Virus record (IMG/VR): IMGVR_UViG_3300029875_000005
Span: 1-64,000 of that record
Strand: one strand, 5' to 3'
DNA from: a virus
DNA length: 64,000 nucleotides
The notes below the pieces were generated by a model. That model did no database searches. It was not told where the DNA came from and saw only the letters and a list, made by a program, of their open reading frames with translations. The translations under genes and the position numbers were made by a program. This document shows, in pieces, positions 23,405 to 55,334 of this stretch (the stretch's first letter is position 1; every line of letters begins with the position of its first letter).

Positions 23405-25114
23405 TTACTGCGCTGTATCTTGACCAGCATAGATAGCCCAAGCGGTGCCAGTGTAGTATAAAACTGTACCTGCCTCATACTTGACATCATCAGTAGGAGA
23501 ATTAGTACCCTTTAAGGTGTAGTTTTGCGTGAGCGCAACCTTCATACCCTTTGATGGATTCTTAGGAAGTTCCTTAGCAGAAATGATGGCATTAAGTGAC
23601 TCTGTGGCAATCTTAGCAATCTTATCAGCAGGACCAACCAAGATTGAGTTGTAACCACGAAGTGCCACACTATCTGCCTCCTGATGAATCCAACGCTTAG
23701 CGTCACGAACCTCGCCACCTCCCTTAGACATATCATTGGTCTGCTCCTTCTTGCCAATCTTGACGTATCGGCGAGAAGCCTTAGGGTCGAAGATAACCAT
23801 AAAGTCTGACATACCCAAGAGATCGAGAGTCTGAGTCCAAACAAAATCAATAGAGCCGAAGGTGTCTTTGAATCGCTTGAAGGTAAGGTCGAACTCGTTG
23901 TGATTAATGAAGTCGTTCTGATGGCTTCCCTCCAACTTGATATTCTCCAAACGTTCGATAGCATTCTTACCACAGAAGGCAAAACAACGATCATTCTCGG
24001 AGAATTCCGTGAACTGGAGTTTGGAAATAGCAATCAAATCGCCAAGCGTATAAGTATCACCGATGGAGTATGTGTTGGTGAGCTGATTGATGATACCCTC
24101 AGAGGTATAGACATCTTCAATCTGTCCGTCGCCGGTCTCTGCCTTGAAGCGAGACTTGCATCCAAGCAAATAAGTACGCTCTGCACGTAGGTTATACTTG
24201 ATGATAGCATCGGTCTTTAAGTCGGCAACTGTAATAGGCTGCTCCTTCTTTACCTTCTCGTAGTCATCTGTAAATACGATGTTCAAGAGTTTCTTCTGAA
24301 CATACACTTCTTTCTCGCGTGGCTGGAAGTTTTCTGGTGTAATGGTGAGCTGAGACTCAGAAGCTGCAGATGCACCAGCAAGGAACGTTGTTCCAACAGG
24401 GATTTCCGGGCAAGTCATGTTGTCAAGATTGTCTCTTGAGTCTCCACTAACCTTCGGCTTTCCGTTGACAGCCTGCATAACCGCTTTTTTACCGTTAGCC
24501 TCAATTACATAAAGCATCAGTGTACCCTCTGTCTTGGTCTGTGAGCCAGCAGCATAACCGGGAACACCAGAAGCAAAAACAGTAGTGCCTTTATAGAATG
24601 GGCGAATAGAACCAGAGAAGTTCGTTGAATTAATCTCGATGGTGTCAGCAGTTTCAATTCTCTGAATAGTCTGTCCATCAAGAGTTTCGCCACCAACACG
24701 CTGATGCGAGATTGACCAGTTCTTAATATTTACTGTTTTTGCCATACGGCGAACAATAGAAAGAAGCGGTGTCTTGAAAGGATAGAACTTAACTATCTCA
24801 CTATCCCACTCCTTATCAAGCAGACCACCCTCACGAAGCTGTGTACTAGAAGCCTGGGAGCCTGTAAGGTCTTGACCATCTTTTTTTCCACCAGGGCTAA
24901 GTCTGTCGTTAACATTAGGGTCTACTGGCTCTTTTTGGGCAACAGTCTCTTTGTCTGCAGGATTTACTCCCTCGTTGCCAATCTGCGGCTCTACAAGGTC
25001 TGCCGTTGCCATTACTCCACCACCGGTAACTACGGCAAGAAGCATCAGAATCATCTTAAAGACGAACTGACCACTCATAAAATTCTTAAAACAATTTTTC
25101 TTCATTTTATACAT
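23405..25114 (-). CDS. putative major capsid protein
   Basis: 569 aa, immediately downstream of the scaffold-like gene. Assigned by size and position only. The N-terminus carries a hydrophobic signal-like segment. An alternative start is the ATG at 25012. Confidence 0.5.
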   Translation of the reverse strand: MYKMKKNCFKNFMSGQFVFKMILMLLAVVTGGGVMATADLVEPQIGNEGVNPADKETVAQKEPVDPNVNDRLSPGGKKDGQDLTGSQASSTQLREGGLLDKEWDSEIVKFYPFKTPLLSIVRRMAKTVNIKNWSISHQRVGGETLDGQTIQRIETADTIEINSTNFSGSIRPFYKGTTVFASGVPGYAAGSQTKTEGTLMLYVIEANGKKAVMQAVNGKPKVSGDSRDNLDNMTCPEIPVGTTFLAGASAASESQLTITPENFQPREKEVYVQKKLLNIVFTDDYEKVKKEQPITVADLKTDAIIKYNLRAERTYLLGCKSRFKAETGDGQIEDVYTSEGIINQLTNTYSIGDTYTLGDLIAISKLQFTEFSENDRCFAFCGKNAIERLENIKLEGSHQNDFINHNEFDLTFKRFKDTFGSIDFVWTQTLDLLGMSDFMVIFDPKASRRYVKIGKKEQTNDMSKGGGEVRDAKRWIHQEADSVALRGYNSILVGPADKIAKIATESLNAIISAKELPKNPSKGMKVALTQNYTLKGTNSPTDDVKYEAGTVLYYTGTAWAIYAGQDTAQ

Positions 25115-26060: not shown

Positions 26061-28094
26061 ATGTATAAGAAAATGGTAAAGGCAAGAATACTGACACTTA
26101 GCAAAGTGATGCCTCAACATAACAAGTATGACTCGGTTAAGGCTCGCAAGCGAAGACAAGAACACGGCAAGGACGAGGAGTTACTCAGCCGATGCAGAAA
26201 TGCTTGGAATAACCTGAGCGGTGTGCGAGAAACGAGGGCGAGAACGATGCGCTACTGTATGGGCGACCAATGGAGCGACACCATCAGAGTATACCATCAT
26301 GGTTACTGGGAGGAAATGACGGAACGCACCTATATGGAAAAGCGCAACCAGACACCTATGAGCAACAACATCATGGTGAGCATTCTGGAATCTATTGCCG
26401 GTCTTTATGCCAAGCAGGGAACGGAACCGGTATGCTTTGCAAGAGATAGCGACTCCCGACAATTGAGCGACATGATGAGTGCCACGATGCAATGCAACTG
26501 GCAGACAACGTACATGCAAGATGTGCTGAACCACGCCATTAAGGACTATCTTATGGGCGGTCAGATGTTTGTCAGAGAGAGTTGGGAGGCGAAGGAACTA
26601 GAAATGCCAGACTCATGGACAGACGCGATGGAACCCGACCACATGTTTTTTGAATGCGGCAGCGACCCACGACACAACGACGTGAGCCTTATCGGTGTGC
26701 TGCATGACGTGAGCCGAGAAGACTTGTATCAGAAGTTTGCCAAACAGGAATATGGGCTTACAGAAGAAGATCTGAACGCCATCTTTGATATTTATCCTTC
26801 GGACGATAACAGCTACGGCTATGAGTTTAACGAAGAAAAGGCGTTGGATAATCTCTCTTTCGACCATACCAACAAGGGAAGACATTACTCTAGAGTGATT
26901 GAGGTGTGGACCACGGAAACCAAACCAATGCTGCAATGCTTTGACCCTATTGCTCAAAATGTAAATGATGCTTATTTTAGGGTAGATCGTAATGATACGG
27001 CTATGATACAAAAGCTGATAGATTTAAACAATAGGCGTAAAGAGCAGTATGACGAGGCTGGTGTGCCGGAGGAAGATAGGGCGTATATCACCAGCAAAGA
27101 TACTTCCAGTAAGTACTGGTATTATACCTATATGGCGCCAGACGGAACTATCCTCTGTCAGGGCGAAACACCATACGACTACAAAAGCCATCCTTTCACA
27201 ATGAAACTCTATCCGTATATCAACGGAGAGATTCATCCATTCCTTGCCAACATCATAGACCAGCAGAGATACATCAACCGACTGATTGTGATGAACGACA
27301 TGGCCATCAGAAGCAGTTTCAAGGGATTCAAGATGATTCCTACAAATGTGCTTAACGGCAGAACGCCAGAGCAGTTTATGGAAGAGGCGGTAGAGTATGA
27401 CGGATGGATATTCTACAAGCCATCGGTAAAGACGCCGAATGCGAAGCCAGAAATTATTACATCGAATGCCGTGAACATCGGTACGAATGAACTCTTGCAG
27501 ATAGAACTGAACCTGATTAGAGAGGTTACCAACGTGAGCGGTGCTTTGCAGGGTAAGACCCCATCGGCAGGAACTTCGGCAGCCAGATATGCACAGGAAA
27601 GCCAGAATGCAACCACGTCTCTGTATACCATCCTTGCCGACATGGACGTGTTCACGGAGAAGCTGGCAACCAAGAAGTGCATGACTATACAGCAGTACTA
27701 CGAAGACGGAAGAAGGGTTTACGACCGGAACTTCAATACGGTTTACAAGTACGACCGTCTTTCGGCAAGAGATATTCACTTCAAGATCAGCATCAAGAAT
27801 GCAGCAGCTACGGCAGCCTTCAACACGATGCAAAACGATACGCTCGACAAGCTTCTTGAAATGGGCGGTATCAATATCATTCAGTATCTGCAGAATCTCA
27901 ACGCACCATTTGCAGACAAGTTGCTTGCCAGCGTACAGGAGCAGCAGGCTCAGCTTGAACAGATGTATCAGCAGCAACAGGCAATGGCTATGCAGCAAGG
28001 CGGTGGTCAGGTAGAGAACGGAATTGTGCAGGGTGCAGACCAGAATGCAGTAGCACAAGCACAGAGTGCATTAGGATATAACAGAGCAGCATAA
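26061..28094 (+). CDS. putative portal protein
   Basis: 677 aa, first gene of the + strand morphogenesis operon, with a Q-rich C-terminal tail. The call rests on size and synteny. Alternative starts at 26073 and 26109. Confidence 0.55.
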   Translation: MYKKMVKARILTLSKVMPQHNKYDSVKARKRRQEHGKDEELLSRCRNAWNNLSGVRETRARTMRYCMGDQWSDTIRVYHHGYWEEMTERTYMEKRNQTPMSNNIMVSILESIAGLYAKQGTEPVCFARDSDSRQLSDMMSATMQCNWQTTYMQDVLNHAIKDYLMGGQMFVRESWEAKELEMPDSWTDAMEPDHMFFECGSDPRHNDVSLIGVLHDVSREDLYQKFAKQEYGLTEEDLNAIFDIYPSDDNSYGYEFNEEKALDNLSFDHTNKGRHYSRVIEVWTTETKPMLQCFDPIAQNVNDAYFRVDRNDTAMIQKLIDLNNRRKEQYDEAGVPEEDRAYITSKDTSSKYWYYTYMAPDGTILCQGETPYDYKSHPFTMKLYPYINGEIHPFLANIIDQQRYINRLIVMNDMAIRSSFKGFKMIPTNVLNGRTPEQFMEEAVEYDGWIFYKPSVKTPNAKPEIITSNAVNIGTNELLQIELNLIREVTNVSGALQGKTPSAGTSAARYAQESQNATTSLYTILADMDVFTEKLATKKCMTIQQYYEDGRRVYDRNFNTVYKYDRLSARDIHFKISIKNAAATAAFNTMQNDTLDKLLEMGGINIIQYLQNLNAPFADKLLASVQEQQAQLEQMYQQQQAMAMQQGGGQVENGIVQGADQNAVAQAQSALGYNRAA

Positions 28095-30056: not shown

Positions 30057-30470
30057 ATGGAAGATTTTGAAATGTATGGATTTAAGTCTGTAAGGGAGAT
30101 ACAGAAAGAGAAGAAGGAGAAGGTAAAGAAAATTCTCCCTGCAAGAAAGAGTGCCCAAAAGGAATATATACGTGACTGGCTGGCAAGGAGCCAAGAGCAG
30201 TTTGAGGATTGTATGAACCAACTGGCAGAGTATGATCCTAAGACATACGTCACCATCTACAAAGACCTTACCAAGCACATGATACCAAAGCAAACAGAAG
30301 TAAGCGTTACTCACGGTATAGATGCAGACTTCAAGCAGCTTATGGCACTCGGTATGACAACCGTAGAGGACGAAGACGAGGCAGACGTACTGGATATAAG
30401 CAAAGCACCCGAGATACAGGATGCAGATTTTGAGGAACTAAACGATTTGACGGATGGCTCTAGTAACTGA
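30057..30470 (+). CDS. possible small terminase subunit
   Basis: 137 aa with a basic N-terminus and an acidic C-terminus. It overlaps the TerL start by 17 nt. The assignment is by position only. Confidence 0.35.
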   Translation: MEDFEMYGFKSVREIQKEKKEKVKKILPARKSAQKEYIRDWLARSQEQFEDCMNQLAEYDPKTYVTIYKDLTKHMIPKQTEVSVTHGIDADFKQLMALGMTTVEDEDEADVLDISKAPEIQDADFEELNDLTDGSSN

Positions 30471-32571
30471 ACAGGAAATAGATAATCTCGTAGCGGAAAA
30501 TCAGGAGCGATACGATGAGATTTATGGCACCTACGACCCTATGACAGGCGAAGGGTGCTATAACTTTGAGCATCGTGTGAAGATAGAACTATCCGATTTC
30601 TTCATTCCTAAGATGTGGGTTCCGAAGAAGACCGCCAAATCTGTTCTGTTTAGAGGTCTGAGAAAGATGGGCAGCCTGAAAGACTACATCAACTACGTGC
30701 TGCACCAGAAGGATGATGCCCAGCATTTCCAAATGCTTACCTTTGCCATCTGTAGAGTGAGGTTCATGGAAGACCCCGAGTTTGCCCTATACGTGACCGA
30801 TAAAATTGAGGATAAGAAGACCGGTAAGATGATTCCTTTCAAGCTGAATTATCCTCAAAGAAAACTACTGAAGATTATGGAGGACCTGCGGAATGCCCAC
30901 AAACCAGTGTTCGTGGTTATTCTGAAGGCACGTCAGTGGGGCGGCTCTACCCTATCACAGCTTTACATCAAATGGATTCAAGACTACAGGCGCGATGGTT
31001 GGAATGCTATTGTGCTTGCCCAGCAGAAGAATACCGCCAAGAAGATTAAGGCGATGTACCGAAAAGCTTTGGAGCGGCAGCCGGGGTGGACCGTGGGGCA
31101 TCCGGGCGCAAAACTCCAGTTCTCTCCATACGAAAATTCTCCCGACGATTTTCAGGTAACGGATGGTGTGAAGGCTATCAGACGAAGTACGCTGACGGTA
31201 GCATCCTTCGAGAACTTCGATTCGGTGCGTGGTAGCAACTTCCACTGTGCTCACTATTCGGAGGTGGCCTATTGGAAGAAGACGCCAGAGCATGATCCTG
31301 AGGGTGTGATTTCTTCTATATCCGGTGGTATTGACCCATTGGAAGACAACGTGGAGATATTCGAGAGTACCGGTAGAGGTAATTCCGGTTTCTTCTATGA
31401 CAAGTGCCAGTTGGCAATGGACCCAAAGAATAATGATGCTTATTCGTTCCTCTTTATTCCTTGTTTCTTCATCGAAAAGGATATGACTCCTGTAGAGAAC
31501 AGAAGAGCATTTGCCAAGTGGCTTTTGCAGAACAGAGACCGAAGTACCTGTCCGAAGGGCTATCGTGAGACTGGCAAGTTCTTCTGGCGAATGTGGCAGA
31601 AGGGTGCTTGCTTTGAGGCAATAGAATGGTACAGAAACTACAGAAACAAGTTTACCACCCATGCGGCATGTGCTACCGAGGCTCCTATTGATGAGGAAGA
31701 TGCGTTCAGAAACTCTGGTAGACTGGTATTCAATCCTTATTCTATAGACGACATGCAGGCTTTGTATAAGCAAGATCCTAAGTTTACTGCCGACATCGTG
31801 GTGAACATCAGCGTGAAGGATGATAACACCATTCCGAACTCGAAGGTGAAGCTGAGAGACGATGGCGAGGGAGACTTGAAGATTTGGGCTGTGCCAAACT
31901 GTCTGCAAGTGGAGAACAGATATTTGGTGAGCGTGGATATTGGCGGTAAGAGTACGACATCGGACTATACCGTTATGACCGTGATAGACCGATTCGGTAT
32001 GATTCCTACGGTGAAGGGCAAGCCAAAGGTGGTAGCGAGATACAGAGGACATGTTAGACATGATAAGCTGGCATGGATGGCTGCTGCCCTAGCTCATTAT
32101 TATGATGATGCGCTTCTGGTGATAGAGAGTAATACTGCCGACCGAGAGAAGAACAACAACACGGAGGGTGATCACTTCCTGACTATTCTGCAGGAGATTG
32201 CCGACTACTACGATAATCTGTATCAGAGAACGAGCAGTTCGGAGAATGTGGAAGACAATGTACTGGCGAAATATGGTTTCCAAACCAACAAGCTGACGAA
32301 GCAGCAGGTGATTGATAACTTGGAAGAGTTTATTGATGATAATCTGTATGAGGAGCCAGACAAGGAAATGTATCATGAGTTGCGCATCTATGAGCGACAT
32401 GATGATGGCAGCTTGGGTAACATCGTGGGTAACGGAAACCATGATGATGTGGTAATGAGTACCGGCATCGGTCTCTTTGTGAGTCTTACGGACATGGAGA
32501 AGCCTAGCTGGAAGAAAGCGGAAAGAAGAAGCCGCGGTGGCGATGGTGTTCATACGGCGGCGAAAATTTAA
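30454..32571 (+). CDS. terL: terminase large subunit
   Basis: Walker A-like VVILKARQWGGSTLSQ. RNaseH-like nuclease motifs VSVDIGGKSTTSDYTV, LLVIESN and GNHDDVVMS. 705 aa. Confidence 0.85.
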   Translation: MALVTEQEIDNLVAENQERYDEIYGTYDPMTGEGCYNFEHRVKIELSDFFIPKMWVPKKTAKSVLFRGLRKMGSLKDYINYVLHQKDDAQHFQMLTFAICRVRFMEDPEFALYVTDKIEDKKTGKMIPFKLNYPQRKLLKIMEDLRNAHKPVFVVILKARQWGGSTLSQLYIKWIQDYRRDGWNAIVLAQQKNTAKKIKAMYRKALERQPGWTVGHPGAKLQFSPYENSPDDFQVTDGVKAIRRSTLTVASFENFDSVRGSNFHCAHYSEVAYWKKTPEHDPEGVISSISGGIDPLEDNVEIFESTGRGNSGFFYDKCQLAMDPKNNDAYSFLFIPCFFIEKDMTPVENRRAFAKWLLQNRDRSTCPKGYRETGKFFWRMWQKGACFEAIEWYRNYRNKFTTHAACATEAPIDEEDAFRNSGRLVFNPYSIDDMQALYKQDPKFTADIVVNISVKDDNTIPNSKVKLRDDGEGDLKIWAVPNCLQVENRYLVSVDIGGKSTTSDYTVMTVIDRFGMIPTVKGKPKVVARYRGHVRHDKLAWMAAALAHYYDDALLVIESNTADREKNNNTEGDHFLTILQEIADYYDNLYQRTSSSENVEDNVLAKYGFQTNKLTKQQVIDNLEEFIDDNLYEEPDKEMYHELRIYERHDDGSLGNIVGNGNHDDVVMSTGIGLFVSLTDMEKPSWKKAERRSRGGDGVHTAAKI

Positions 32572-32595: not shown

Positions 32596-35361
32596 ATGGA
32601 AAGAAACTTAGAAAGACAAACTTTGAGCTTTAGCAAGGGCATGACGAATGTGCCTAGCGACTTGCTTTCAGATGATTCTGAACTGCTGGAGAGTGACGGA
32701 TTTATCTTTAAGGATGGAGAAATGAAGGCGGTACAGAAGGGGGTGGAAATTACAGGTGGCGTTCCTCTTGAAGGAAAGCTGGTTTATGTTCACAAACTGG
32801 CTGACTACAGGAACCTTATAACATATATCGAAAATGGAACAAAGCTAAAATGCTATATTAACTTCAAAGATAATCAAAGCACGGATAGGAAGACGCAAAC
32901 GATAGGACTAGGTTCAAAGCTGCTCGATATTAAGCACGTAGGAAATACTTTAGTCTGTGCTACAGAAGAAGGTATGCATTATATTCTGTATAAAGGAAAT
33001 GTATATAAGGACTTAGGTAAGGAACTACCCATACCAGATATTAGTTTTACCTTTACAAACGAAGAAGAAAAAACAGAACTGGAGAAGGACAGAACAGTAT
33101 GCAGAATGCGAACATTTGTAAGCGAAGTGAAAACAGAGGGTTATGGATATTTGTGTTATGACGAAAGCGGAAATTTCACAGGTGTAAAGGATTCGCATGA
33201 CGGAGCAGCAAAATACACTCTTGATTATCATCATATTATGAATGAGTCTGACACCGAGAAATATACTAATTTTCAAAATGCAGTTAAAGGGCACGCTGCA
33301 GAAGCCATCGAATATACAAAGAATAAAAATCTCTTTGCATTTCCCTTCTTTATTCGTACTGCATTGAGAATGTTTGACGGAACAACGTTTGCCAGAATTT
33401 CGAACCCAATCGTATGCTATCCTTCAACACATAAGAACTGCAAGTTTGGACCCTGTATTTATGATTCTGACAAAAAGACCTGGGTAGTGACAGCGAACAA
33501 AATTGCCACGGGTAGTGATACTTCCTGGCAATATATGCTCATATTGAATTATTCTCACCTCAATTTTAAGATAGACTTTCCCAATAAAGATGATTGGAAG
33601 GATATAATCAAAGAGGTCGTGGTGTTTGCATCTGACGATGTTATTCCATTTGAGATAGATTCTGACTGGTCTTTCAAAACCGTAAGTGAACTAAACGGAA
33701 AGACTTATTATGATTACGTAACAGCAGATCATTATTCTGCGAAAAAAATAACATTCAATTGGCATACCTACCAAGCAAGAGAGCTGATAGAACCTGTTTA
33801 TAAGACAGAGCGCAAGATAATAGACGAACTCCTAGGAAAGACACAGTTTTTCAAGTTGTTCTCGTTAGAACTTAATTCGGAATATCTTGATAACATCTGG
33901 CATGACGCTTCTGCTTATGACGAAACGGTTTCTGATGTAAGAATCATGCCGGAAGGAAGACTATCAAACTTGAAAGAACAGGAGCAGTTAAAGGTGGACG
34001 ATTATTACGGATGGACCAATCTGACATCTTCAAAACTGTTCAGTTATAACAACAGAATAAATCTGATAGGAGTAAAAAGATACCCATTTAAAGGCTTCAC
34101 CATATTCAGAGCTGGTTACACAAGCCCAACAAATGCTTATGGGTTTGTGAAATACTATGTGCATATAGTTTCACAAACTATGGACACTTGGGTATTGTCT
34201 AACGCTCTGCTGATAGATAAGGACTACCAGCCTTATAACGACTGGTACTTTTATCCTGATCCAAATGCAAAGGAGATGCTTATCATGGTAAATAAGTACC
34301 AAGAGGGTAAAACATACTACTACAACATCAATCTGCAAATGCATCCTATGTTAAACGGAAGTTATAGTTTTGCCGCTTTGCCTCCAACTTTACTGGCTAC
34401 AGGTAAGGACGTAGCAAACAAACAGATAGGAGGATTTGAAGATTTGAACTCTAACATATATACCTCAGTAGTCAATAACCCATTTGTATTTGAGGCATCG
34501 GGAGATAATACGGTTGGAACCGGAAAGATACTCGGAATTATTGCCAACACAGAGGCTGTAAGCCAAGGTCAGTTTGGTCAATATCCATTGATGGTATTTA
34601 CGGACGAAGGTATCTACGGCTTGTCGGTTAACTCAGAAGGACTCTATAGTAGAGCCTATCCAATATCAAGAGAGGTATGTAATGAGGATTCGCCACTGGT
34701 GCCGACGGACAGGCTTGTGTTCTTTGCTTCAAAGAAAGGACTGATGGCGGCAAGCGGTGGAAGCGTAGCCTGTATGAGCGAGCAGATGAGGGGAAGAGTA
34801 CCAAGGAACTTTGCAACCTTCGGTGAAGGCAAGTTCCTGGATTTTCTGAAAGGATGCCTTATCGCCTACGATTACAGAGACTCCATATTGAGAATATTCA
34901 GCAAGGGAAAATCATACCAATACATATATAATATGGTGGATAAGACCTTCTCAATGGTGAATAGCGGAATAGAGGCACAGGCGGTAGTGAATGATTATCC
35001 GGATAATCTGATACAGGATACTAACGGAAACGTTTATTCGCTTACAGGAAAACCAGACATTAACAAAGATACGGAAAGCTATAGCGGATCATTTACGACC
35101 AGACCTTTGAAGCTGGGCGGCAGCATGACGTTAAAATCGCTGAGAGCGGTGAAGCATCTGTTTGATTCGGACGAAGGTACGATTGGGCTGGAGATATACG
35201 GAAGCAACGACTGCAAGCACTGGTGCAAGCTGCCAAGCTTGGCAGGTAAGCCTTGGAAGTACTTTACTTTTAAATATACGCTGCAGAACTTTAAGGCTGC
35301 TGATTCCTTTGCTGGAAGTATAGTAGAGGTACAAAGCAGACGAGAAGACAAAATGAGATAA
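32596..35361 (+). CDS. large virion-module protein of unknown function
   Basis: 921-aa ORF directly after TerL. Beta-rich composition with no recognisable motif. Confidence 0.7.
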   Translation: MERNLERQTLSFSKGMTNVPSDLLSDDSELLESDGFIFKDGEMKAVQKGVEITGGVPLEGKLVYVHKLADYRNLITYIENGTKLKCYINFKDNQSTDRKTQTIGLGSKLLDIKHVGNTLVCATEEGMHYILYKGNVYKDLGKELPIPDISFTFTNEEEKTELEKDRTVCRMRTFVSEVKTEGYGYLCYDESGNFTGVKDSHDGAAKYTLDYHHIMNESDTEKYTNFQNAVKGHAAEAIEYTKNKNLFAFPFFIRTALRMFDGTTFARISNPIVCYPSTHKNCKFGPCIYDSDKKTWVVTANKIATGSDTSWQYMLILNYSHLNFKIDFPNKDDWKDIIKEVVVFASDDVIPFEIDSDWSFKTVSELNGKTYYDYVTADHYSAKKITFNWHTYQARELIEPVYKTERKIIDELLGKTQFFKLFSLELNSEYLDNIWHDASAYDETVSDVRIMPEGRLSNLKEQEQLKVDDYYGWTNLTSSKLFSYNNRINLIGVKRYPFKGFTIFRAGYTSPTNAYGFVKYYVHIVSQTMDTWVLSNALLIDKDYQPYNDWYFYPDPNAKEMLIMVNKYQEGKTYYYNINLQMHPMLNGSYSFAALPPTLLATGKDVANKQIGGFEDLNSNIYTSVVNNPFVFEASGDNTVGTGKILGIIANTEAVSQGQFGQYPLMVFTDEGIYGLSVNSEGLYSRAYPISREVCNEDSPLVPTDRLVFFASKKGLMAASGGSVACMSEQMRGRVPRNFATFGEGKFLDFLKGCLIAYDYRDSILRIFSKGKSYQYIYNMVDKTFSMVNSGIEAQAVVNDYPDNLIQDTNGNVYSLTGKPDINKDTESYSGSFTTRPLKLGGSMTLKSLRAVKHLFDSDEGTIGLEIYGSNDCKHWCKLPSLAGKPWKYFTFKYTLQNFKAADSFAGSIVEVQSRREDKMR

Positions 35362-35395: not shown

Positions 35396-35428
35396 AAAGG
35401 CGGCTGCTCATCACGAGTGGTCGCCTTT
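35396..35428. terminator. bidirectional intrinsic terminator
   Basis: GGCGGCTGCTC-ATCAC-GAGTGGTCGCC forms an 11-bp stem including G-U pairs, flanked by AAAAA and TTTAAAA. It lies between convergent genes. Confidence 0.65.
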
Positions 35429-35479: not shown

Positions 35480-35962
35480 TTATCTGTTTTTGATATTATT
35501 TATGCAATATGCTACGATGTAGCCTAATACGAAGCAGTAAAGATGGAGAAGTCCGTTGACATTCGGCACGGCCATGGTGCAAATAATGAACGGCATCGCT
35601 TTCTTTAATGCCTCTTTCCATCGTCCTGTCCTACCCCACATCAAACCGAATGAAGCAAATAGGAAACCGGAAAGCCCCATTGTAGGCTGACTAACATACA
35701 TGGGCAGCAGACTAGCGACAGAGGCAACAGCCAGAGAAGTGACTGGTTTCATATCGTTCTTTATCTGCCAAAGCACCAGAAGGTTTACGGCAAGATGAAA
35801 GCCGTTGACATGGAAGAAGCTATACAGGATATGATTCTGCCAAGGGCAACCGGGATAGAAACCTATGTGCCAAGTACACAGAACGAGGCAGATGATGCTA
35901 AGCACCAGCTTTGTTCGAAAGTTTCTTCTTACGAAGGTCCATTTCTCTGTAATTTTTTCCAT
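35480..35962 (-). CDS. minimal rhomboid-family intramembrane serine protease
   Basis: Start set at MEKITEKW (ATG at 35962). Motifs: FFHVNGFHLAVNLL (H-x4-H-x3-N, TM2), TMGLSGFLFASFG (GxSG catalytic Ser, TM4), GLLHLYCFVLGYI (catalytic His, TM6). About six hydrophobic helices in 160 aa. Confidence 0.8.
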   Translation of the reverse strand: MEKITEKWTFVRRNFRTKLVLSIICLVLCTWHIGFYPGCPWQNHILYSFFHVNGFHLAVNLLVLWQIKNDMKPVTSLAVASVASLLPMYVSQPTMGLSGFLFASFGLMWGRTGRWKEALKKAMPFIICTMAVPNVNGLLHLYCFVLGYIVAYCINNIKNR

Positions 35963-36353
35963 ACTTCTTATAGTAAGCGAAAATAAACTTGAGATTACTT
36001 GGCTGGATAAAGAACTCTGGTGCAGGCTCAGAAACAAGGAACTGGCAGATAAACCATAAAGATTTGCCCACGAACTCCTTTCGCTGCGTCATTTCGTTCA
36101 TCCTATTGAACAGCGTATAGTACAACTTCTGCCGAATCGGCTTCATGCTATCCACCTTTGAGAAATCGCCGACTGCCATTCTGCGGAGTATATCCCAAGC
36201 TCTTTTGGGAGAAACATAGTATCTCGGAGCAGGAGAATGAACCACCTTTTCCCAAGCCTCCTGTTGGGAATGGCAATTAGGAGCTATCTCCCGATACGCC
36301 TTCATCAGATCATCCCTCTGTCTGTCAATCAATTCGTAATTTGCTCTTGCCAT
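35898..36353 (-). CDS. hypothetical protein co-transcribed with the rhomboid
   Basis: 151-aa ORF overlapping the rhomboid start by 65 nt. Preceded by a TATATTTG promoter box. Confidence 0.6.
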   Translation of the reverse strand: MARANYELIDRQRDDLMKAYREIAPNCHSQQEAWEKVVHSPAPRYYVSPKRAWDILRRMAVGDFSKVDSMKPIRQKLYYTLFNRMNEMTQRKEFVGKSLWFICQFLVSEPAPEFFIQPSNLKFIFAYYKKYGKNYREMDLRKKKLSNKAGA

Positions 36354-36376
36354 ATAAATGCTGCATTAAGATGCTG

Positions 36377-36384
36377 CAAATATA
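36377..36384 (-). promoter_or_regulatory. Bacteroidota -7 box TATATTTG
   Basis: Matches TAnnTTTG on the - strand, 24 nt upstream of the ATG at 36353. Confidence 0.55.
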
Positions 36385-36476
36385 CATATTATTTAGAATA
36401 TGACCAAATAAGAGCATAAAGATTTAAATAAGTTTAATATTAGACTGGTTTTCATGGTGTTACGAAAGAAAAAGTT

Positions 36477-36484: not shown

Positions 36485-36555
36485 CAACGAAATAACATAT
36501 ATATACTAAGAACTGTTAGTAAAAAGTGAAATTAAACCATAAATTCGTAACAAAA

Positions 36556-36726
36556 ATGAGAACAAAACAGGAATCGCCTCTCTCGGAAGAGGAGGAAGCC
36601 TTAGTTATGGAAGGCTTATTGAGTAGGAAGATTTGGAGGTTCTATGAACTTCTATCAAAGTGGGCACCCATCCCATTGATGCTAGGTCACTGGTACGCCG
36701 TATGGGACTATGGACATTATCCCTAG
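36556..36726 (+). CDS. hypothetical small protein
   Basis: ATG at 36556 (MRTKQESP). The ORF track uses a GTG at 36526. Confidence 0.4.
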   Translation: MRTKQESPLSEEEEALVMEGLLSRKIWRFYELLSKWAPIPLMLGHWYAVWDYGHYP

Positions 36727-37042
36727 ACCAACAATATTAGATACCGATTTCAACGGGAACTGCATCATCTGGATTTATGTACTGGCATACATTTATATGC
36801 CACTGACCATGATACCGGTAAGTTTCTTCTTCAGATACTGCTGGATTTTCCGTATTCCGTTCTTCTATTTTTTCGGTATCAACGCAATCAGATTGTATCA
36901 TCAGCACTGGCTCATCACTCCCGAGCAGTTGGAGATGCACCATGTGTTTATCATATTCACTTTAATGCTTTACGCTTATGGATTTATCAAAATCGCTCTA
37001 TCGAATAGCAGAATCTGCCTTCGGGATGCTAAGAAACGATGA
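36710..37042 (+). CDS. hypothetical multi-pass membrane protein
   Basis: 110 aa, very hydrophobic (IIWIYVLAYIYMPLTMIPVSFFF, FIIFTLMLYAYGFIKIAL). Confidence 0.5.
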   Translation: MDIIPRPTILDTDFNGNCIIWIYVLAYIYMPLTMIPVSFFFRYCWIFRIPFFYFFGINAIRLYHQHWLITPEQLEMHHVFIIFTLMLYAYGFIKIALSNSRICLRDAKKR

Positions 37043-37439
37043 GTGCGGGTTTACAGAGGAAGAAGAGAGGATTGTGCAGAGGAATCTGCTGTACTGGATG
37101 GAAAGGAAGCATCACTTTGACGAACAACTGGGCAGAGCCTGTATCGCCAACATCTATTATTTTGATGATGATGTTCACAAAAAGTATGCGCCTTACTTCG
37201 GGTTTGATGAGTTGAAGGATGATTATGACCGGCTATCTTGGAACATACCGGACTACAACTTCTGGGATTTTGCGGTAACGATGAATAAGATGTATGCTGA
37301 CCATATAGACGTGGTGGGCAAATGGTCGAAGAACAAAGACACCACAAGAAAAAGGATCTCGGAACTGGCTATCAGTTTCCTCTGTGACGAATCGACAAAC
37401 CACCCGACGGATAAAATCTGGTGGTATATGAATAGCTAA
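37026..37439 (+). CDS. hypothetical protein
   Basis: The ORF runs 36978..37439. The internal ATG at 37026 avoids most of the overlap with the preceding gene. Confidence 0.55.
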   Translation: MLRNDECGFTEEEERIVQRNLLYWMERKHHFDEQLGRACIANIYYFDDDVHKKYAPYFGFDELKDDYDRLSWNIPDYNFWDFAVTMNKMYADHIDVVGKWSKNKDTTRKRISELAISFLCDESTNHPTDKIWWYMNS

Positions 37440-37473
37440 GTTGGAACACGGCAAAAGCTATTGAAAAGCCTTT

Positions 37474-37481
37474 TATCTTTG
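37474..37481 (+). promoter_or_regulatory. Bacteroidota -7 box TATCTTTG upstream of lysis cassette
   Basis: Matches TAnnTTTG, 27 nt upstream of the holin ATG. Confidence 0.55.
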
Positions 37482-37507
37482 TAGCCATTAATCATAAATA
37501 ATGATAT

Positions 37508-37951
37508 ATGGCAGAGATAGTACATACATTTTTACAAGAGCACCTGTACAGATCGGCATTGGTTATTGTCATCTGCATGGGTGCTCTTATCATTTCTATG
37601 GGCGTGGACCTGTTCTTCGGCATCAATAAAGCGAAAGAGAACGGACTGGCTACGACAAGTACAGGATTCAAGAAGACTTGCGACAAGGCGAGGAAATACT
37701 TCTCTCCCTTCATGGTGACGGTCTGTATAGACCTGATAGCATGCACGGTTCTCCCCTTCCCTGTCTTCTCTATGATTTGGGCAGGATATTGCGTGTTCTG
37801 TGAATTTGTAAGCGTAAGAGAGAAGAGCTGGCAGAAGGCTGAGATACGGAAGCAGGAGAAGACAGTAAGCATTCTTCTGGAGAACAAAGAAGACTTGGCT
37901 AGGGCTTTTGCTGAGATTATGAAGGAGCAGGGAAAGGAGGAGAAGAAATGA
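37508..37951 (+). CDS. holin (three predicted TM helices, charged C-terminus)
   Basis: TM segments SALVIVICMGALIISMGVDLFFG, FMVTVCIDLIACTVL and FPVFSMIWAGYCVFCEFV, with a K/E-rich tail. The stop overlaps the endolysin start (ATGA). Confidence 0.75.
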   Translation: MAEIVHTFLQEHLYRSALVIVICMGALIISMGVDLFFGINKAKENGLATTSTGFKKTCDKARKYFSPFMVTVCIDLIACTVLPFPVFSMIWAGYCVFCEFVSVREKSWQKAEIRKQEKTVSILLENKEDLARAFAEIMKEQGKEEKK

Positions 37952-38391
37952 GACTGATCAAGAGAATTTTTGTTCATTGTACTGCCTCTTCTCAGAAATG
38001 GGGCGTAAAGGAACTTTGGGACGAGTTTAAGCGCAAAGGTTGGAATAACCCAGGGTATCATTACGTGATTACTGCTGATGGTGGGATTCACCAGATGCTG
38101 CCGGTAGAAATGGTTAGCAACGGTGTGAAGGGATATAATGCTACGGCTATCAATGTGGCTTACGTTGGCGGCATCAACAAGAAGGGAAAGGCGGTAGACA
38201 ACAGAACTGAGGAGCAGAAGAAATCGCTTATCACTCTGCTCACTCAGCTGAAGAAGAAATATCCGTATGCTGAAATCTTAGGGCACAGGGATATTTCGCC
38301 CGACAAGAACCATAATGGCGTAGTGGATCCTTGGGAGAGAATCAAGGAGTGCCCTTGCTTTGAAGCTAAAGTTGAATACAAAGAGATATAG
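37948..38391 (+). CDS. N-acetylmuramoyl-L-alanine amidase endolysin (Amidase_2/PGRP, T7-lysozyme-like)
   Basis: IFVHCTAS, GYHYVI, ILGHRD and KECPCF give the Zn-ligand pattern H...H...C of Amidase_2. Confidence 0.85.
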   Translation: MRLIKRIFVHCTASSQKWGVKELWDEFKRKGWNNPGYHYVITADGGIHQMLPVEMVSNGVKGYNATAINVAYVGGINKKGKAVDNRTEEQKKSLITLLTQLKKKYPYAEILGHRDISPDKNHNGVVDPWERIKECPCFEAKVEYKEI

Positions 38392-38394
38392 CTT

Positions 38395-38835
38395 ATGAAA
38401 TGGTATGACATAAGGTTTTGGAAATGGGCTTGCATCGGCTTGATGATTGGAATTATCCTATTGTCATTTACAGGATGCAAGACGAAGGAGTATATCAAGG
38501 TTCCTTCTGTTAGAACTGAATACGTATGCAGAACTGATACTTTTGCTAAGTTGGATAGTATCTACATGAAGGATTCGGTATATGTTTTTCAGAAAGGTGA
38601 TACGGTTTTCCATAACAAGGTGGTTTATCGGGACCGGTATCATAATATATATAAGGTGAAGACGGACACGATCATCAAGAGGGATTCTGTTGGCGTGCCT
38701 TATCCTATAGAGCGACAACTGACGAAGAACGAACAAAGGCTGATGTCGCTAGGCAGATGTTATATCGCCTTTCTGTTCATACTGGCGGTTTGCGCGATTG
38801 GGTTTACTCTCTGGTACAGAAACAAAAAATGCTAG
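38395..38835 (+). CDS. unimolecular spanin candidate
   Basis: N-terminal lipoprotein signal (LLSFTGC) plus a C-terminal TM helix (CYIAFLFILAVCAIGFTLWY). Lies immediately downstream of the endolysin. Confidence 0.55.
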   Translation: MKWYDIRFWKWACIGLMIGIILLSFTGCKTKEYIKVPSVRTEYVCRTDTFAKLDSIYMKDSVYVFQKGDTVFHNKVVYRDRYHNIYKVKTDTIIKRDSVGVPYPIERQLTKNEQRLMSLGRCYIAFLFILAVCAIGFTLWYRNKKC

Positions 38836-38838
38836 CTT

Positions 38839-39150
38839 ATGGCTAAGATTAGCGAAGAACTGCAGATGATTGATTCGCTCCTGATGGAATTTCATGAGCG
38901 GATTCAGAGCGGAAGATGTCTGACGAGCAAGCAGCAAAATGCTTTCATGCTTGATTTTCTGCACCGCATTGCCAATAAGGACGAGCCTATCAGCAAGGCA
39001 GAGGCATGCAGCTATGTTCGTGTTTCCAGGGCTACCTTTGACCGCCTTGTGAAAGAAGGCAGGCTGCCAAAGGGTAAAAAGCGGAAAGGATGGACCGAGC
39101 TGGTTTGGTACGAAAAAGATTTAGATAAATATGTAGATAGATTGGTATAG
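38839..39150 (+). CDS. excisionase-like / MerR-type HTH DNA-binding protein
   Basis: ISKAEACSYVRVSRATFDRLVKEGRLPKGKKRKGWTELVWYEKDL is an HTH_17/Xis-like pattern. Confidence 0.55.
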   Translation: MAKISEELQMIDSLLMEFHERIQSGRCLTSKQQNAFMLDFLHRIANKDEPISKAEACSYVRVSRATFDRLVKEGRLPKGKKRKGWTELVWYEKDLDKYVDRLV

Positions 39151-54200: not shown

Positions 54201-55334
54201 TTACATCTTTCCTTCGAGGGCATCGAAAGCAGATTGTACGTCCTTATTTAATGTACGTGCGTATCTAGTAGTTTGACGCAAGGTAGTGTGTCCAAGCACC
54301 CTTGCCACAATGTTGATAGGCATTCCCTTAGACAGGAATAAGGTTGCCGCAGTCGCTCTACCCATGTGGGTATGCAGCCTGTCAACGCCAACCATCTGCC
54401 CGATCGCCTTCAGATAATCATTATACTTCTGATTCGTCATTCTAGGCAGCTTGAAGTCATACTTCTGTAGTATCTCCAGGGCAGGTTTGAGAAGTTGGAA
54501 TACGAAATCCGTATCTGTTTTCGTTCTCTTAGCGTGATAGAACATCTTGCCGCCAATCTCCTCGCAGTTAGTATAATCGAACGATGCAAGGTCAGAGTAT
54601 GCAAGTCCGGTATAGCATTGGAAGAGGAACAAATCTCTTGCATGGAGAATATGAGGTGTTGAGAGTTTCAGTTTCTTGATGGCAGCAAACTGCTCTTCGG
54701 TGACACAATCAACATACTGCTTTTCTCCCTTACCAATATGGAATGGCAGAAACTTATAAGGATTCTGCTCAATAAGTCCGTCTATCATCGCATCATTGAT
54801 GAACAACTTGAGATACTTGTGATAGTCATAGATTGTGCATTGAGCCTTATCCTGTCTGTGGAGATACTCATCCATTGAACGCACCTTCGATACGTTGCAG
54901 TCTTGGAATGACTTTATCTTCCCCCACGTCTTCAGAAATTTGATAAAGACATCATAGCGTTTCTTGGTATGCTCGCACACCTTACGCTCATTTCGTCTTC
55001 TCTCGCAGTACTCGATGAAAGAAGTTCCTTCGTCTTCTCCGTTCATCTGTGAGATAACCACATTTAAGTCACAACAGCCTTCCTTAACCATCTTACTGAT
55101 GATTTCGTTTGCTCTCGCGCGGTATGCCTGTATGATTTCATTCAGTTCATCCGCATCTTTTCTCTTGATAACCATCTTTGACGCATCAGACCATTGTGTA
55201 GTTGTCACTTTCACGCCTGTGGAAAAGTACTTCCTTTGACGCTTGGCACAAAAGCATAATTCTACCGAAACTTCATGTTTTGAGGTCGCTCGCTTCAAAC
55301 GATTGTGAATAATACTTAAATTAATTTTTGCCAT
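54201..55334 (-). CDS. int: tyrosine integrase (Bacteroidota IntDOT-like type)
   Basis: Start set at MAKINLSIIH (ATG at 55334). Box II HMGRAT (HxxR), then LGHTTLRQTTRYA (His and the Tyr nucleophile). Confidence 0.85.
   Translation of the reverse strand: MAKINLSIIHNRLKRATSKHEVSVELCFCAKRQRKYFSTGVKVTTTQWSDASKMVIKRKDADELNEIIQAYRARANEIISKMVKEGCCDLNVVISQMNGEDEGTSFIEYCERRRNERKVCEHTKKRYDVFIKFLKTWGKIKSFQDCNVSKVRSMDEYLHRQDKAQCTIYDYHKYLKLFINDAMIDGLIEQNPYKFLPFHIGKGEKQYVDCVTEEQFAAIKKLKLSTPHILHARDLFLFQCYTGLAYSDLASFDYTNCEEIGGKMFYHAKRTKTDTDFVFQLLKPALEILQKYDFKLPRMTNQKYNDYLKAIGQMVGVDRLHTHMGRATAATLFLSKGMPINIVARVLGHTTLRQTTRYARTLNKDVQSAFDALEGKM

Follow-up and report, generated by a model that had tools for sequence, protein, structure and literature searches.

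A predicted minimal rhomboid protease that probably belongs to the conserved head and packaging core of a lineage of gut phages

What does a rhomboid intramembrane protease do for a phage, and what would it cleave? This question is raised by a small membrane protein gene in a stretch of 64,000 nucleotides of viral DNA (positions 1 to 64,000 of IMG/VR record IMGVR_UViG_3300029875_000005; hereafter, the window). Few bacterial rhomboids have a known physiological substrate. A sequence-only reading of the window had described the gene as a 160-aa ORF with the rhomboid hallmarks in the right order and about six helices, and we examined this description together with the surroundings, distribution and possible substrates of the gene.

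The gene lies at 35480..35962 on the minus strand and encodes a predicted intramembrane serine protease of 160 aa with six transmembrane (TM) helices and a Ser98/His140 dyad. A mechanical ORF call begins at a TTG and gives 185 aa (35480..36037, minus strand); the ATG start used here is the choice of gene callers in most homologues. TM2 carries H51-x4-H56-x3-N60 (FFHVNGFHLAVN), the GxSG-type serine motif G96-L-S98-G99 (GLSGFLFASFG) lies at the top of TM4, and TM6 carries H140 followed by G147 at His+7 (LLHLYCFVLG), where mini-rhomboids have Cys or Ala instead of the first Gly in the GxxxG part of the GlpG motif AHxxGxxxG. In 60 close homologues, H51, N60, S98, H140 and G147 are invariant, and conservation of H56 and G96 is at least 90%. 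Across 76 diverse sequences with identity down to 23%, the invariant residues are H51, H56, G96, S98 and H140, and N60 and G147 are kept in at least 90%. The hallmarks that had been described are thus present and conserved.

Pfam Rhomboid (PF01694) is the only Pfam family that matches the ORF (E=6e-4); the score of 20.4 bits is just under the gathering score of 22.6, and the match begins at residue 41 of the protein and profile position 4. The same profile matches 53 of the 60 close relatives, with a best E of 1.5e-8. A single-sequence search of the PDB with the rhomboid gave nothing meaningful and profiles alone succeeded: the family profile matched only GlpG and iRhom chains, and it aligned over the full length with GlpG of Haemophilus influenzae (E=8e-11, the best match) and of Escherichia coli (E=4e-9). 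In these alignments H51-x4-H56-x3-N60 falls on HFSLMHILFN of GlpG, which includes the oxyanion residues H150 and N154, GLSG falls on the GLSG of GlpG, and H140 falls on the catalytic His of H. influenzae GlpG. The AF2 model (pLDDT 89.6, pTM 0.85) has six long membrane helices and a short N-terminal helix. When it was compared with the PDB by Foldseek, the top 30 matches were all GlpG (probability 1.0, TM 0.52-0.62, E from 8e-5 to 4e-3), followed by iRhom1. The profile search and the comparison with GlpG, which the sequence-only reading had proposed as checks, therefore both place the protein among rhomboids. No family was found for it in PHROGs. The only NCBIfam match was a weak one to rhombosortase (TIGR03902), and membership in that family was rejected because the scores (11.9 bits for the window protein, 27.1 for BS-TP4 gp8) are far from the equivalog cut-off of 84. 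By comparison of 37 alleles the rhomboid gene is under purifying selection (dN/dS = 0.14), and this ratio and the invariant catalytic set are indirect evidence of protease activity. Judged from sequence and model, the ORF very probably has an active rhomboid fold.

This rhomboid is a minimal variant, since it lacks the L1 loop and the WR motif. TM1 and TM2 are connected by only ~6-8 residues (YPGCPWQN), and N42-H43 occupies the position aligned to W136-R137 of GlpG. As far as the alignments tell, the difference concerns an accessory element, and the predicted catalytic core is unaffected. The positive-inside rule places both termini and the TM2-3 and TM4-5 loops in the cytoplasm. This predicts the orientation of GlpG, in which the Ser98-His140 dyad would open to the periplasmic face of the inner membrane.

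The rhomboid gene is the second of a two-gene unit. The first, at 35898..36353 on the minus strand, encodes a 151-aa partner. The two genes share 65 nt at the start of the rhomboid gene, which is presumably translationally coupled to the partner gene. The partner is a soluble all-alpha protein with an internally duplicated PAPxF/Y motif. It matches phrog_27246, to which no function is assigned; sequence searches of Pfam, NCBIfam and the PDB gave no match, and a Foldseek search of the PDB with its confident AF2 model (pLDDT 90) also found none (best E=2). The idea that the partner is a small terminase was dropped, as position was its sole support. A Bacteroidetes-type promoter lies upstream at 36377..36408 on the minus strand, with a -33 TTTG at 36405-36408, a 20-nt spacer and a -7 TATATTTG at 36377-36384, whose end is 23 nt from the partner ATG. 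We judged it by conservation among relatives, as the motif count in the window is not above chance (60 matches to TAnnTTTG against 49 expected, no enrichment). Among 93 distinct sequences from upstream of the partner gene in relatives, 84 have a box 15-60 nt before the ATG, mostly at ~30-35 nt, in contexts that have diverged. On this conservation, the unit is transcribed from a predicted Bacteroidetes sigma-A-type promoter, and the earlier description of a two-gene minus-strand unit with its own promoter holds.

On the other side, a terminator-like hairpin (35396..35428) lies between the convergent rhomboid and p921 genes and is recognised by folding energy and conservation; it is kept in relatives, and changes in the stem preserve pairing. 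Its folding energy is -22.1 kcal/mol (z = -6.0) on the plus strand, with only UUU after it, and -11.8 kcal/mol (z = -2.7) on the minus strand, with U5 after it. The hairpin had been called a bidirectional terminator. It does fold both ways and this is plausible, but it is asymmetric and weaker on the minus strand. A sigma-70/terminator scanner did not call the hairpin, and this scanner is uninformative for a Bacteroidetes phage.

The wider window confirms that the gene is phage-borne: it encodes portal, terminase, capsid, lysis genes including an amidase, an integrase and RecT. The large terminase TerL is at 30454..32571 and the conserved 921-aa protein p921 (phrog_32516, function unassigned) at 32596..35361, both on the plus strand; p921 is convergent with the rhomboid unit and is always found in the same neighbourhood. 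Beyond a gap of 172 bp from the rhomboid unit, a divergent unit (36526..38835, plus strand) encodes ORFs of 66 aa and 110 aa (multi-pass membrane), a DUF7841 protein, a holin-like protein (37508-37951, plus strand), an Amidase_2 endolysin (37948-38391, plus strand) in which a hydrophobicity scan found no TM segment, and a u-spanin-like lipoprotein (38395-38835, plus strand), whose N-terminus is of the lipoprotein type and which has a TM helix at its C-terminal end. The location next to the lysis region that had been pointed out is therefore true for the window phage.

Relatives of the mini-rhomboid are on gut viral contigs of 65-78 kb in IMG/VR and in Segatella and Leyella genomes. A search of 185,579 species genomes gave four matches, three labelled Prevotellaceae (Segatella, Leyella) and one labelled 'Bacilli'. 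The proposed 'Quimbyviridae' (Benler et al. 2021) reportedly have ~75-kb genomes, a tyrosine integrase, diversity-generating retroelements (DGRs) and Bacteroides or Prevotella hosts, and are said to be defined by a TerL/portal/MCP phylogeny. The carrier is a temperate ~75-kb 'Quimby-like' phage of Prevotellaceae, a label given by size, integrase and host fit, with DGRs in related cultured phages, and not by a TerL/portal/MCP tree.

It had also been supposed that a rhomboid is not a usual phage gene. This does not hold for the present family: the mini-rhomboid is carried at 334 plus 110 IMG/VR loci and forms 766 clusters at 50% identity, and JGI and GenBank annotation already names some members rhomboid protease. 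In these scans, single distant queries were mostly unsuccessful and a sub-family alignment was effective. Partner and rhomboid are adjacent at all 82 of 82 close loci. Divergent loci show the order partner-rhomboid-TerL, or rhomboid-TerL with the partner displaced, and in most of the divergent relatives the rhomboid is directly upstream of TerL and overlaps it, with the promoter-bearing partner first. The order partner-rhomboid-TerL is also found in the cultured Bacteroides phages BS-TP4, BKO1-TP3 and BF1-TP2, and the commonest order overall is promoter-partner-rhomboid-TerL, adjoining the portal, scaffold and capsid genes. Some relatives have a homing-endonuclease ORF inserted after the rhomboid gene, which is not displaced.

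Nine window genes, the rhomboid among them, have BLASTP homologues in both BF1-TP2 and BS-TP4. The other eight encode the polyvalent protein, adaptor, capsid, scaffold-like protein, portal, a 212-aa protein, TerL and p921, and sit in virion, packaging or polyvalent-protein regions. The rhomboid is thus one of the few genes that the whole lineage keeps beside its capsid and packaging genes, and so it probably serves virus assembly and not lysis. From this gene content and order, partner and rhomboid probably belong to a small conserved head-morphogenesis and packaging core rather than to a lysis module.

Which protein might such an enzyme cut? Besides the rhomboid itself, the only conserved hydrophobic segment in the three fully compared phages is the N-terminus of the major capsid protein. 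On this comparison, the capsid protein is the only conserved phage-encoded candidate substrate. In the window it has 569 aa (23405..25114, minus strand) and can be aligned from end to end with its counterparts in BS-TP4 and BF1-TP2 (Pfam SU10_MCP), in which the Pfam match begins only at residue 65-80. The signal-anchor-like segment before it (25007..25114, minus strand; MYKMKKNCFKNFMSGQFVFKMILMLLAVVTGGGVMA, then an acidic linker) has the same plan in all eight lineages checked: basic residues, ~15 hydrophobic residues, a Gly-rich (T/S)G(G/A)xx(M/L)A motif, summarised as TGGGxMA, and an acidic linker. In each lineage, a large hydrophobic residue stands three positions before Gly or Ala, which fits the P4 and P1 rules of the rhomboid recognition motif (PMC2941825); the P2' position is a mismatch. 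No prohead protease was recognised among the scanned head-module genes. The capsid of phage SU10, the prototype of the family, has no such extension, and no rhomboid was found in the 50 kb of SU10 searched. As SU10 is a single negative control, the co-occurrence of leader and rhomboid is not yet a true phylogenetic profile. Our capsid HMM fails to reach the SU10 capsid protein, and this control therefore consists of a reading of the SU10 sequence and of Pfam profile coordinates; in the rhomboid-less phage MW202692, the HMM found no capsid gene. Among the matches listed in a capsid-profile homology search there were only near-identical ones and no anchor-less capsid relatives.

These data suggest the following mechanism. 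Late in the lytic cycle, the rhomboid would cut, on the periplasmic side of the membrane, a hydrophobic segment inserted into it, and the leading candidate is the N-terminal anchor of the phage's own major capsid protein. This anchor (basic, hydrophobic, TGGGxMA) would transiently tether the capsid protein or procapsids to the inner membrane, its cleavage would release them, and the co-translated 151-aa partner may serve as an adaptor. The assembly of T4 procapsids on the inner membrane is a precedent (PMC9958956). The best explanation as a whole, a serious one that still falls short of probable, is a minimal rhomboid of the head and packaging core that cleaves a membrane segment late in the lytic cycle, with the capsid protein as leading candidate. 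The narrower form, a capsid-assembly protease that cuts the anchor and possibly uses the partner as adaptor, is possible but doubtful.

The main objection is one of topology. Since the capsid helix is preceded by basic and followed by acidic residues, its predicted topology is N-in/C-out, the opposite of the bacterial rhomboid substrates used so far, which are N-out/C-in, type I or III (PMC2941825). An N-in/C-out insertion would misplace the capsid body across the membrane unless translocation aborts. In addition, the segment has the features of a common Sec signal peptide, including an AxA-like site, and could therefore be a target of the signal peptidase of the host, and the invariant Met of the 'MA' motif could alternatively be an internal start codon. 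For the hydrophobic segment, pN/pS is 0.54 over nine codons, so that selection is only weakly demonstrable there. A lipoprotein reading of this N-terminus was rejected, as Cys is absent in most lineages and a proper lipobox in the rest. With these points included, we regard the capsid protein as a possible substrate and hold more doubt than confidence about it.

Host-takeover and exclusion genes are usually patchy in distribution. The rhomboid is one of nine conserved genes and the others are virion, packaging or polyvalent-protein genes, which speaks against a host-directed protease, that is, one cleaving a conserved single-pass inner-membrane protein of Bacteroidales (an anti-sigma factor, a TonB/ExbD/Tol component, or a divisome or Sec accessory protein) with envelope remodelling, host shut-off or a block to superinfection or re-adsorption as the effect. 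The rhomboid also usually overlaps TerL inside the packaging operon, and a PADLOC search for defence and exclusion systems gave zero matches for rhomboid, partner or neighbours. Nevertheless, the predicted GlpG orientation suits N-out/C-in host substrates, as judged by sequence topology and the motif rules (PMC2941825), and conservation of the gene in phages that infect Bacteroides, Segatella and Leyella fits a substrate conserved among these hosts. In the window, a consensus promoter and a terminator belong to the unit alone, so its expression could be separate from that of the late operon. On balance, a host target, which the sequence-only reading had also proposed along with a membrane protein of a superinfecting phage, seems unlikely.

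The first proposal for this gene was processing of a holin, an antiholin or a spanin. As a lysis regulator, the rhomboid would cut one of the former two or the C-terminal anchor of the u-spanin and so set lysis timing. The unit is indeed divergent from the lysis cassette in the window, across the 172 bp mentioned above, and the C-terminal TM helix of the u-spanin-like protein has the canonical N-out/C-in orientation of rhomboid substrates. However, adjacency to the lysis cassette is peculiar to the sub-lineage of the window, and TerL is the neighbour in the three cultured phages and at the majority of divergent loci; the endolysin is ~14 kb from the rhomboid in BF1-TP2 and ~16 kb in BS-TP4. 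Furthermore, homologues of the window holin and spanin were not detected in BF1-TP2 or BS-TP4, unlike the rhomboid, and an enzyme acting on these lysis proteins is therefore unlikely. We now consider this proposal improbable.

A moron or lysogenic-conversion gene, expressed from the prophage to the benefit of the lysogen, would fit a temperate phage with an integrase and a short unit that is antisense to the neighbouring late genes and set between promoter and terminator, and a Stenotrophomonas phage rhomboid is listed among moron genes (PMC5834331). We rejected membership despite the promoter and hairpin: the gene is core and universal in the lineage and not patchy, it lies within the TerL operon in most relatives, where the same promoter would also drive TerL, and an inserted homing-endonuclease ORF has not displaced it. 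This makes such a role very unlikely. Pseudoproteases typically lose catalytic residues. A non-proteolytic rhomboid-fold protein (a chaperone, an adaptor, a derlin- or iRhom-like membrane-thinning or insertion factor, or an anchor for partner or terminase) is suggested by gene overlap, conserved for the soluble partner and frequent for TerL, which points to a complex, by the adaptor functions of some bacterial rhomboids (cited in PMC9245657) and by the missing WR motif and L1 loop, but it is the least probable reading, given that Ser98, His140, H51, H56 and G96 are invariant and N60 nearly so, that the gene is under purifying selection, and that the only amidase-linked non-catalytic rhomboid precedent, ActH, works through TPR repeats that are absent here.

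The assignment to a conserved head and packaging core has consequences of its own. Conservation across the lineage narrows the search for a substrate to ~80 phage genes or conserved host envelope proteins. Rhomboid-bearing phages are abundant in human gut viromes, and with three cultured, inducible Bacteroides relatives (BF1-TP2, BS-TP4 and BKO1-TP3) the question is directly testable. A stripped-down rhomboid of 145-170 aa without the L1 loop is also a natural minimal scaffold for work on structure and mechanism. Should the capsid leader prove to be the substrate, these phages would assemble their capsids through a membrane-tethered step that intramembrane proteolysis resolves; we know of no maturation route in which a membrane-tethered capsid is released in this manner. 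As far as we know, no other intramembrane protease works in virion morphogenesis, so the mini-rhomboid would then be the first, and together the two proteins would give a bacterial-type rhomboid with a natural substrate in a system that is amenable to genetics. Whether or not the rhomboid cuts it, the conserved leader of the capsid protein, which looks like a signal peptide, is itself unexplained.

The closest known system is GlpG of E. coli and H. influenzae (PDB 2IC8, 2NR9; PF01694, MEROPS S54), which resembles the mini-rhomboid in its six-TM core, in predicted orientation and in three motifs: HxxxxHxxxN within TM2, GxSG where TM4 begins and a TM6 His with Gly seven residues later. Identity is ~20%. 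The mini-rhomboids are smaller, with 145-170 aa compared with ~180 aa of the crystallised GlpG core: L1 is cut to ~6-8 residues, WR is absent, the L5 cap is shorter and there is no cytoplasmic domain. In contrast to GlpG, they are phage-encoded and lie in a head and packaging module. BF1-TP2 gp59, BS-TP4 gp8 and BKO1-TP3 gp50 are of the same family (24-31% identity; partner-rhomboid-TerL context), and the paper on the isolation of these phages does not mention rhomboids (PMC12694917). One of the annotated phage rhomboids is misnamed 'glycoside hydrolase'. 'GlpG-like' BFVD models of uncultured Podoviridae superpose on the mini-rhomboid at TM 0.66-0.78. The 'rhomboid membrane protein' of Stenotrophomonas phage DLP5, listed as a moron (PMC5834331), is likened by annotation only; we found no functional study of any phage rhomboid in the literature. 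Analogy to the amidase activators ActH and LytH was dropped. In ActH, the activating function resides in the TPRs (PMC9245657); the mini-rhomboid, with 160 aa, has neither TPR repeats nor an extramembrane domain, and the endolysin of the window is an Amidase_2 protein without a detected TM segment.

Rhombosortase and GlyGly-CTERM (TIGR03902; PMC3237569) also combine a small rhomboid with a dedicated signal. This signal consists of a Gly-Gly motif on the outer side of the membrane, a TM helix and basic residues clustered on the inner side, and the capsid N-terminus has all three elements. The capsid signal differs in being N-terminal and a mirror image (basic, TM, GGG), and the chain polarity is therefore reversed relative to GlyGly-CTERM. 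In Providencia stuartii, AarA activates TatA by removing a short N-terminal segment (PMC3712462, PMC2941825), and the recognition motif, with a small P1 and a large hydrophobic P4, is fitted by the capsid motif at both positions but not at P2'. AarA has seven TM helices, and the N-out/C-in topology of TatA differs from the N-in topology predicted for the capsid helix.

The known prohead proteases are soluble and packaged inside procapsids, and to our knowledge no intramembrane protease takes part in capsid maturation. If the capsid protein is the substrate, the mini-rhomboid would nevertheless follow the same logic as the prohead proteases HK97 gp4 and T4 gp21 and the membrane-bound T4 initiator gp20/gp40 (PMC9958956): a phage protease would remove an N-terminal segment of the capsid protein during assembly, and the procapsid would leave the membrane.

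Both checks proposed in the sequence-only reading, a Pfam profile search and a structural comparison with GlpG, place the 160-aa ORF at 35480..35962 (-) in the rhomboid family. The coordinates claimed for it were correct. The mechanical ORF (35480..36037 (-), 185 aa) begins at a TTG, and the 160-aa length is obtained from the ATG at 35962. The three motifs reported earlier are present as H51-x4-H56-x3-N60, G96-L-S98-G99 and H140 with G147. In Pfam, Rhomboid was the sole match of the window protein (E=6e-4), at 20.4 bits slightly under the gathering score of 22.6, and 53 of 60 aligned relatives matched it as well (best E=1.5e-8). Against the PDB, a close-relative profile matched GlpG alone (E=0.003), and a broader profile, built from 76 diverse members of the family, matched H. 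influenzae GlpG (E=8e-11) and E. coli GlpG (4e-9) over the full length, with iRhoms ranking after GlpG. The AF2 model (pLDDT 89.6, pTM 0.85) has six long helices. In Foldseek, GlpG took all 30 top places among its PDB matches (probability 1.0, TM 0.52-0.62), iRhom1 came next, and the Der1 match was non-significant (E=3.6). Down to 23% identity, the 76 members all keep H51, H56, G96, S98 and H140, N60, G106 and G147 are at least 90% conserved in the same alignment, and among 37 alleles dN/dS is 0.14 with all catalytic positions fixed. Unlike GlpG, the phage protein lacks the L1 loop, with a TM1-TM2 link of ~6-8 residues, and has N-H at the position of the WR motif. Because the catalytic core and fold are kept and the L1 loop is missing, the protein is, as judged from sequence and model, a rhomboid family member of a minimal variant, and protease activity is predicted. 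We found 91 homologues, one of which bears a JGI name, 'membrane associated rhomboid family serine protease'.

In IMG/VR, close relatives of the rhomboid turned up at 334 loci, many of them on contigs of 65-78 kb, and a more distant sub-family at 110 further loci. A representative library held 766 mini-rhomboid clusters at E<=1e-3, and nearly all proteins in the best 150 of these 766 were 145-190 aa long. Among 185,579 species genomes searched, there were four rhomboid matches only, including a Segatella copri MAG (94% identity), Ca. Segatella violae and a Leyella stercorea isolate. The Segatella and Leyella labels and the rarity of matches indicate that the host is Prevotellaceae and that the gene is essentially phage-restricted. 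The fourth match, L083 (CAAGQJ010000009.1), is 98% identical in the rhomboid gene and comes from a MAG labelled 'Bacilli bacterium', probably through misbinning. The phage's genome size, its integrase and its host are in keeping with a tentative placement in the proposed 'Quimbyviridae' (PMC8008677). Of 50,697 GenBank phage records, 3 carry the mini-rhomboid family: Bacteroides phages BS-TP4, BKO1-TP3 and BF1-TP2, temperate phages in culture, all from a single study of 2025 in which the rhomboid gene goes unmentioned (PMC12694917). In GenBank, the BKO1-TP3 rhomboid is misannotated as 'glycoside hydrolase' (L082:5974-6492), and the large terminase (TerL) of all three phages is wrongly named 'tail spike protein' (L082:6485-8599; L081:6482-8578; L168:5043-7070).

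The rhomboid start is overlapped by 65 nt by an upstream partner gene (35898..36353 (-), 151 aa). TATATTTG at 36377-36384 (-) is preceded at a distance of 20 nt by TTTG, the known Bacteroidetes -33/-7 promoter layout. The proposal that the unit has its own promoter box was borne out, as 84 of 93 distinct upstream regions carry a box, varying in sequence, 15-60 nt (mostly ~30-35 nt) upstream of the partner ATG. The box keeps company with the partner gene across rearranged loci. Between the rhomboid stop and the convergent stop of p921 (32596..35361 (+), encoding a conserved 921-aa protein) lies a terminator-like hairpin at 35396-35428, with -22.1 kcal/mol (z = -6.0) and then UUU on the + strand, and -11.8 kcal/mol (z = -2.7) and then U5 on the - strand. 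It was not called by a generic terminator scanner; it is kept across phages with the window's gene arrangement (type C), where base changes preserve pairing. No name or Pfam domain is attached to any of the partner's 119 homologues. An internal duplication is seen directly (SPAPRYYVSP and EPAPEFFIQP); A42, P43, R44, Y46, A111 and F114 are invariant, and P110, P112 and E113 are at least 90% conserved. Its confident AF2 model is all-alpha (pLDDT 90.2) and matched no PDB structure (best E=2). The partner is possibly an adaptor. Its position before TerL had suggested a small terminase, which nothing tested supported.

By gene content the window is phage DNA, encoding a portal (26061-28094), TerL (30454-32571), an SU10-type adaptor and capsid protein, a tyrosine integrase (54201-55367), RecT, NinG and dUTPase, and, for lysis, holin-like, Amidase_2 endolysin and u-spanin-like proteins. 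Partner and rhomboid are adjacent in 82 of 82 close loci, and divergent loci show three arrangements. In A, the commonest among them and that of the three cultured phages, promoter, partner, rhomboid and TerL follow on a single strand with overlapping genes. In B, the order is portal, four small genes, rhomboid, TerL and p921, with the partner moved to the other strand. In C, that of the window, partner-rhomboid converges with TerL-p921 and diverges from the lysis unit. When the window was compared by BLASTP with the complete genomes of BF1-TP2 and BS-TP4, homologues in the two of them were found for nine genes only: those for the giant polyvalent protein, adaptor, capsid, scaffold-like protein, portal, a 212-aa protein, TerL, p921 and rhomboid. 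A partner homologue was detected by BLASTP in BS-TP4, and in BF1-TP2 a ~148-aa ORF at the same overlapping position is a candidate counterpart. The window holin and spanin are not conserved in either genome, whose endolysins lie 14-16 kb from the rhomboid. Together, synteny, the nine shared genes and the non-conserved lysis genes indicate that the rhomboid gene probably belongs to the core of the head and packaging region rather than being a lysis accessory or a moron.

Other genes of the window and of related phages also stood out. The giant polyvalent-protein ORF (6-13556 (+), more than 4,500 aa, running past the window start) carries ddrB-ParB, Strawberry-notch-type helicase (AAA_34 + Helicase_C_4) and LPD38 domains and is homologous to BS-TP4 gp3 (5,391 aa) and a BKO1-TP3 gene annotated 'DarB-like antirestriction'. 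In some relatives (L047:6480-7085; also L048-L051, L061, L077-L080), ~700 bp inserted between rhomboid and p921 replaces the final ~8 rhomboid codons and encodes a 201-aa ORF, starting MEKEIWKPIKGYEGLYDVSNFGRV, that looks like a NUMOD4/HNH-type homing endonuclease. DUF7841 paralogues occur at 16492-16905 (+) and 36978-37439 (+) (E=1.5e-25 and 2.5e-8), one of them between the rhomboid unit and the holin. Right after the amidase, 38395-38835 (+) encodes 146 aa that begin like a lipoprotein (LLSFTGC) and carry a TM helix at the C-terminus, as laid out in unimolecular spanins; the proteins beside the BF1-TP2 and BS-TP4 endolysins are unrelated to it, measure 155-182 aa and combine an N-terminal TM with a beta-barrel-like C-terminus. 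Directly 3' of the spanin-like gene, 38839-39150 (+) encodes 103 aa with a weak PADLOC mad1 match (E=1e-5) and a C-terminus resembling an excisionase or HTH.

When the window genes were scanned for hydrophobicity, the 569-aa major capsid protein (23405-25114) showed an N-terminal hydrophobic segment. The protein aligns full length with BS-TP4 gp11 and BF1-TP2 gp56, whose matches to Pfam SU10_MCP (E=1e-29 and 1e-33) begin only at residue 65-80. The leader (window 25007-25114 (-); also L081:4520-4625, L168:3110-3212, L172:7824-7910) has an identical architecture in 8 of 8 lineages of rhomboid-bearing phages checked: two to five Lys/Arg, a hydrophobic stretch of ~15 residues, a Gly-rich TGGGxMA-type motif that ends in (M/L)A (e.g., LAVVTGGGVMA, LAVLTGGAAMA, FVTGASSGVMMA, MLGATTGCGMCMA) and an acidic Gly/Thr/Asp/Glu-rich linker. 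The capsid start is fixed at M(YK)MKK by stop codons just upstream. A degenerate DNA pattern of the motif occurred at 78 places in IMG/VR, 66 of which scored as capsid genes. LAVLTGGGSMA is also present within an unrelated viral protein (…ELQKQVALAAILAVLTGGGSMAGGGG…), at loci from other metagenomes that only this pattern scan brought up (L176, L177, L184, L189, L210, L214, L215, L221, L243). Among proteins common to three fully compared genomes, only the capsid N-terminus and the rhomboid have hydrophobic segments, and no prohead protease was recognised among the head-module genes scanned. Co-occurrence of leader and rhomboid is contrasted with one negative control rather than a phylogenetic profile: in E. 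coli phage SU10, the family prototype, the capsid protein (352 aa, starting MANPTLFVSYDQ) has no leader-type segment, and the 50 kb searched yielded no rhomboid. A capsid protein with a signal-peptide- or TM-like leader is unexplained in its own right.

The major capsid protein is a tentative candidate substrate, which the mini-rhomboid might release through intramembrane proteolysis. Charge distribution predicts a capsid helix that is N-in/C-out, like a Sec signal peptide, and this argues against the capsid as substrate, since bacterial rhomboid substrates are N-out/C-in, with one type II substrate (Star) alone reported (PMC2941825). Because the capsid body would be non-functional in the periplasm, the reading also demands an aborted export. 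The leader has an AxA-like site at which host signal peptidase might cleave, and its invariant Met may instead serve for internal initiation. In Bacteroidetes, Gln is usual at +1 of signal peptidase I substrates; the capsid leaders lack it, at most a hint on such cleavage. Selection on the hydrophobic leader codons is weakly shown (pN/pS 0.54, nine codons). Topology, signal peptidase, internal Met, the one control and weak selection keep the capsid reading tentative.

A host-directed role, in which a host envelope protein would be cleaved, agrees with the enzyme's orientation; we consider it doubtful, as it comes without a candidate substrate and is awkward beside core-gene status. Action on lysis proteins was also proposed, and in the window the rhomboid unit does adjoin the lysis unit, but this role depends on an adjacency that is not conserved and is unlikely. 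That the gene is a moron is at odds with its distribution and very improbable, and a non-catalytic role, at odds with the invariant catalytic set, is the most improbable.

The rhomboid fold and chemistry are already known, databases already name some family members rhomboid proteases, and a few other phage rhomboids appear in genome announcements (PMC5834331); our literature search found no functional study of phage rhomboids. Apparently new are a large phage-restricted family of mini-rhomboids without L1, its probable core-gene status tied to the terminase/head module in an abundant gut phage lineage, the conserved overlap of rhomboid with a protein of unknown fold, and the signal-anchor-like capsid leader co-occurring with the rhomboid. 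An analogy to ActH/LytH for rhomboid and amidase was rejected, because ActH activates its amidase via TPR repeats (PMC9245657), which are absent from the window protein. In each lineage the capsid leader has a large hydrophobic residue three positions before Gly or Ala, which agrees with the published rhomboid recognition motif at P4 and P1; at P2' the leader departs from it (PMC2941825). The sole NCBIfam match of the rhomboid, a weak one, is rhombosortase, and the layout of the capsid leader mirrors the GlyGly-CTERM signal of rhombosortases (PMC3237569).
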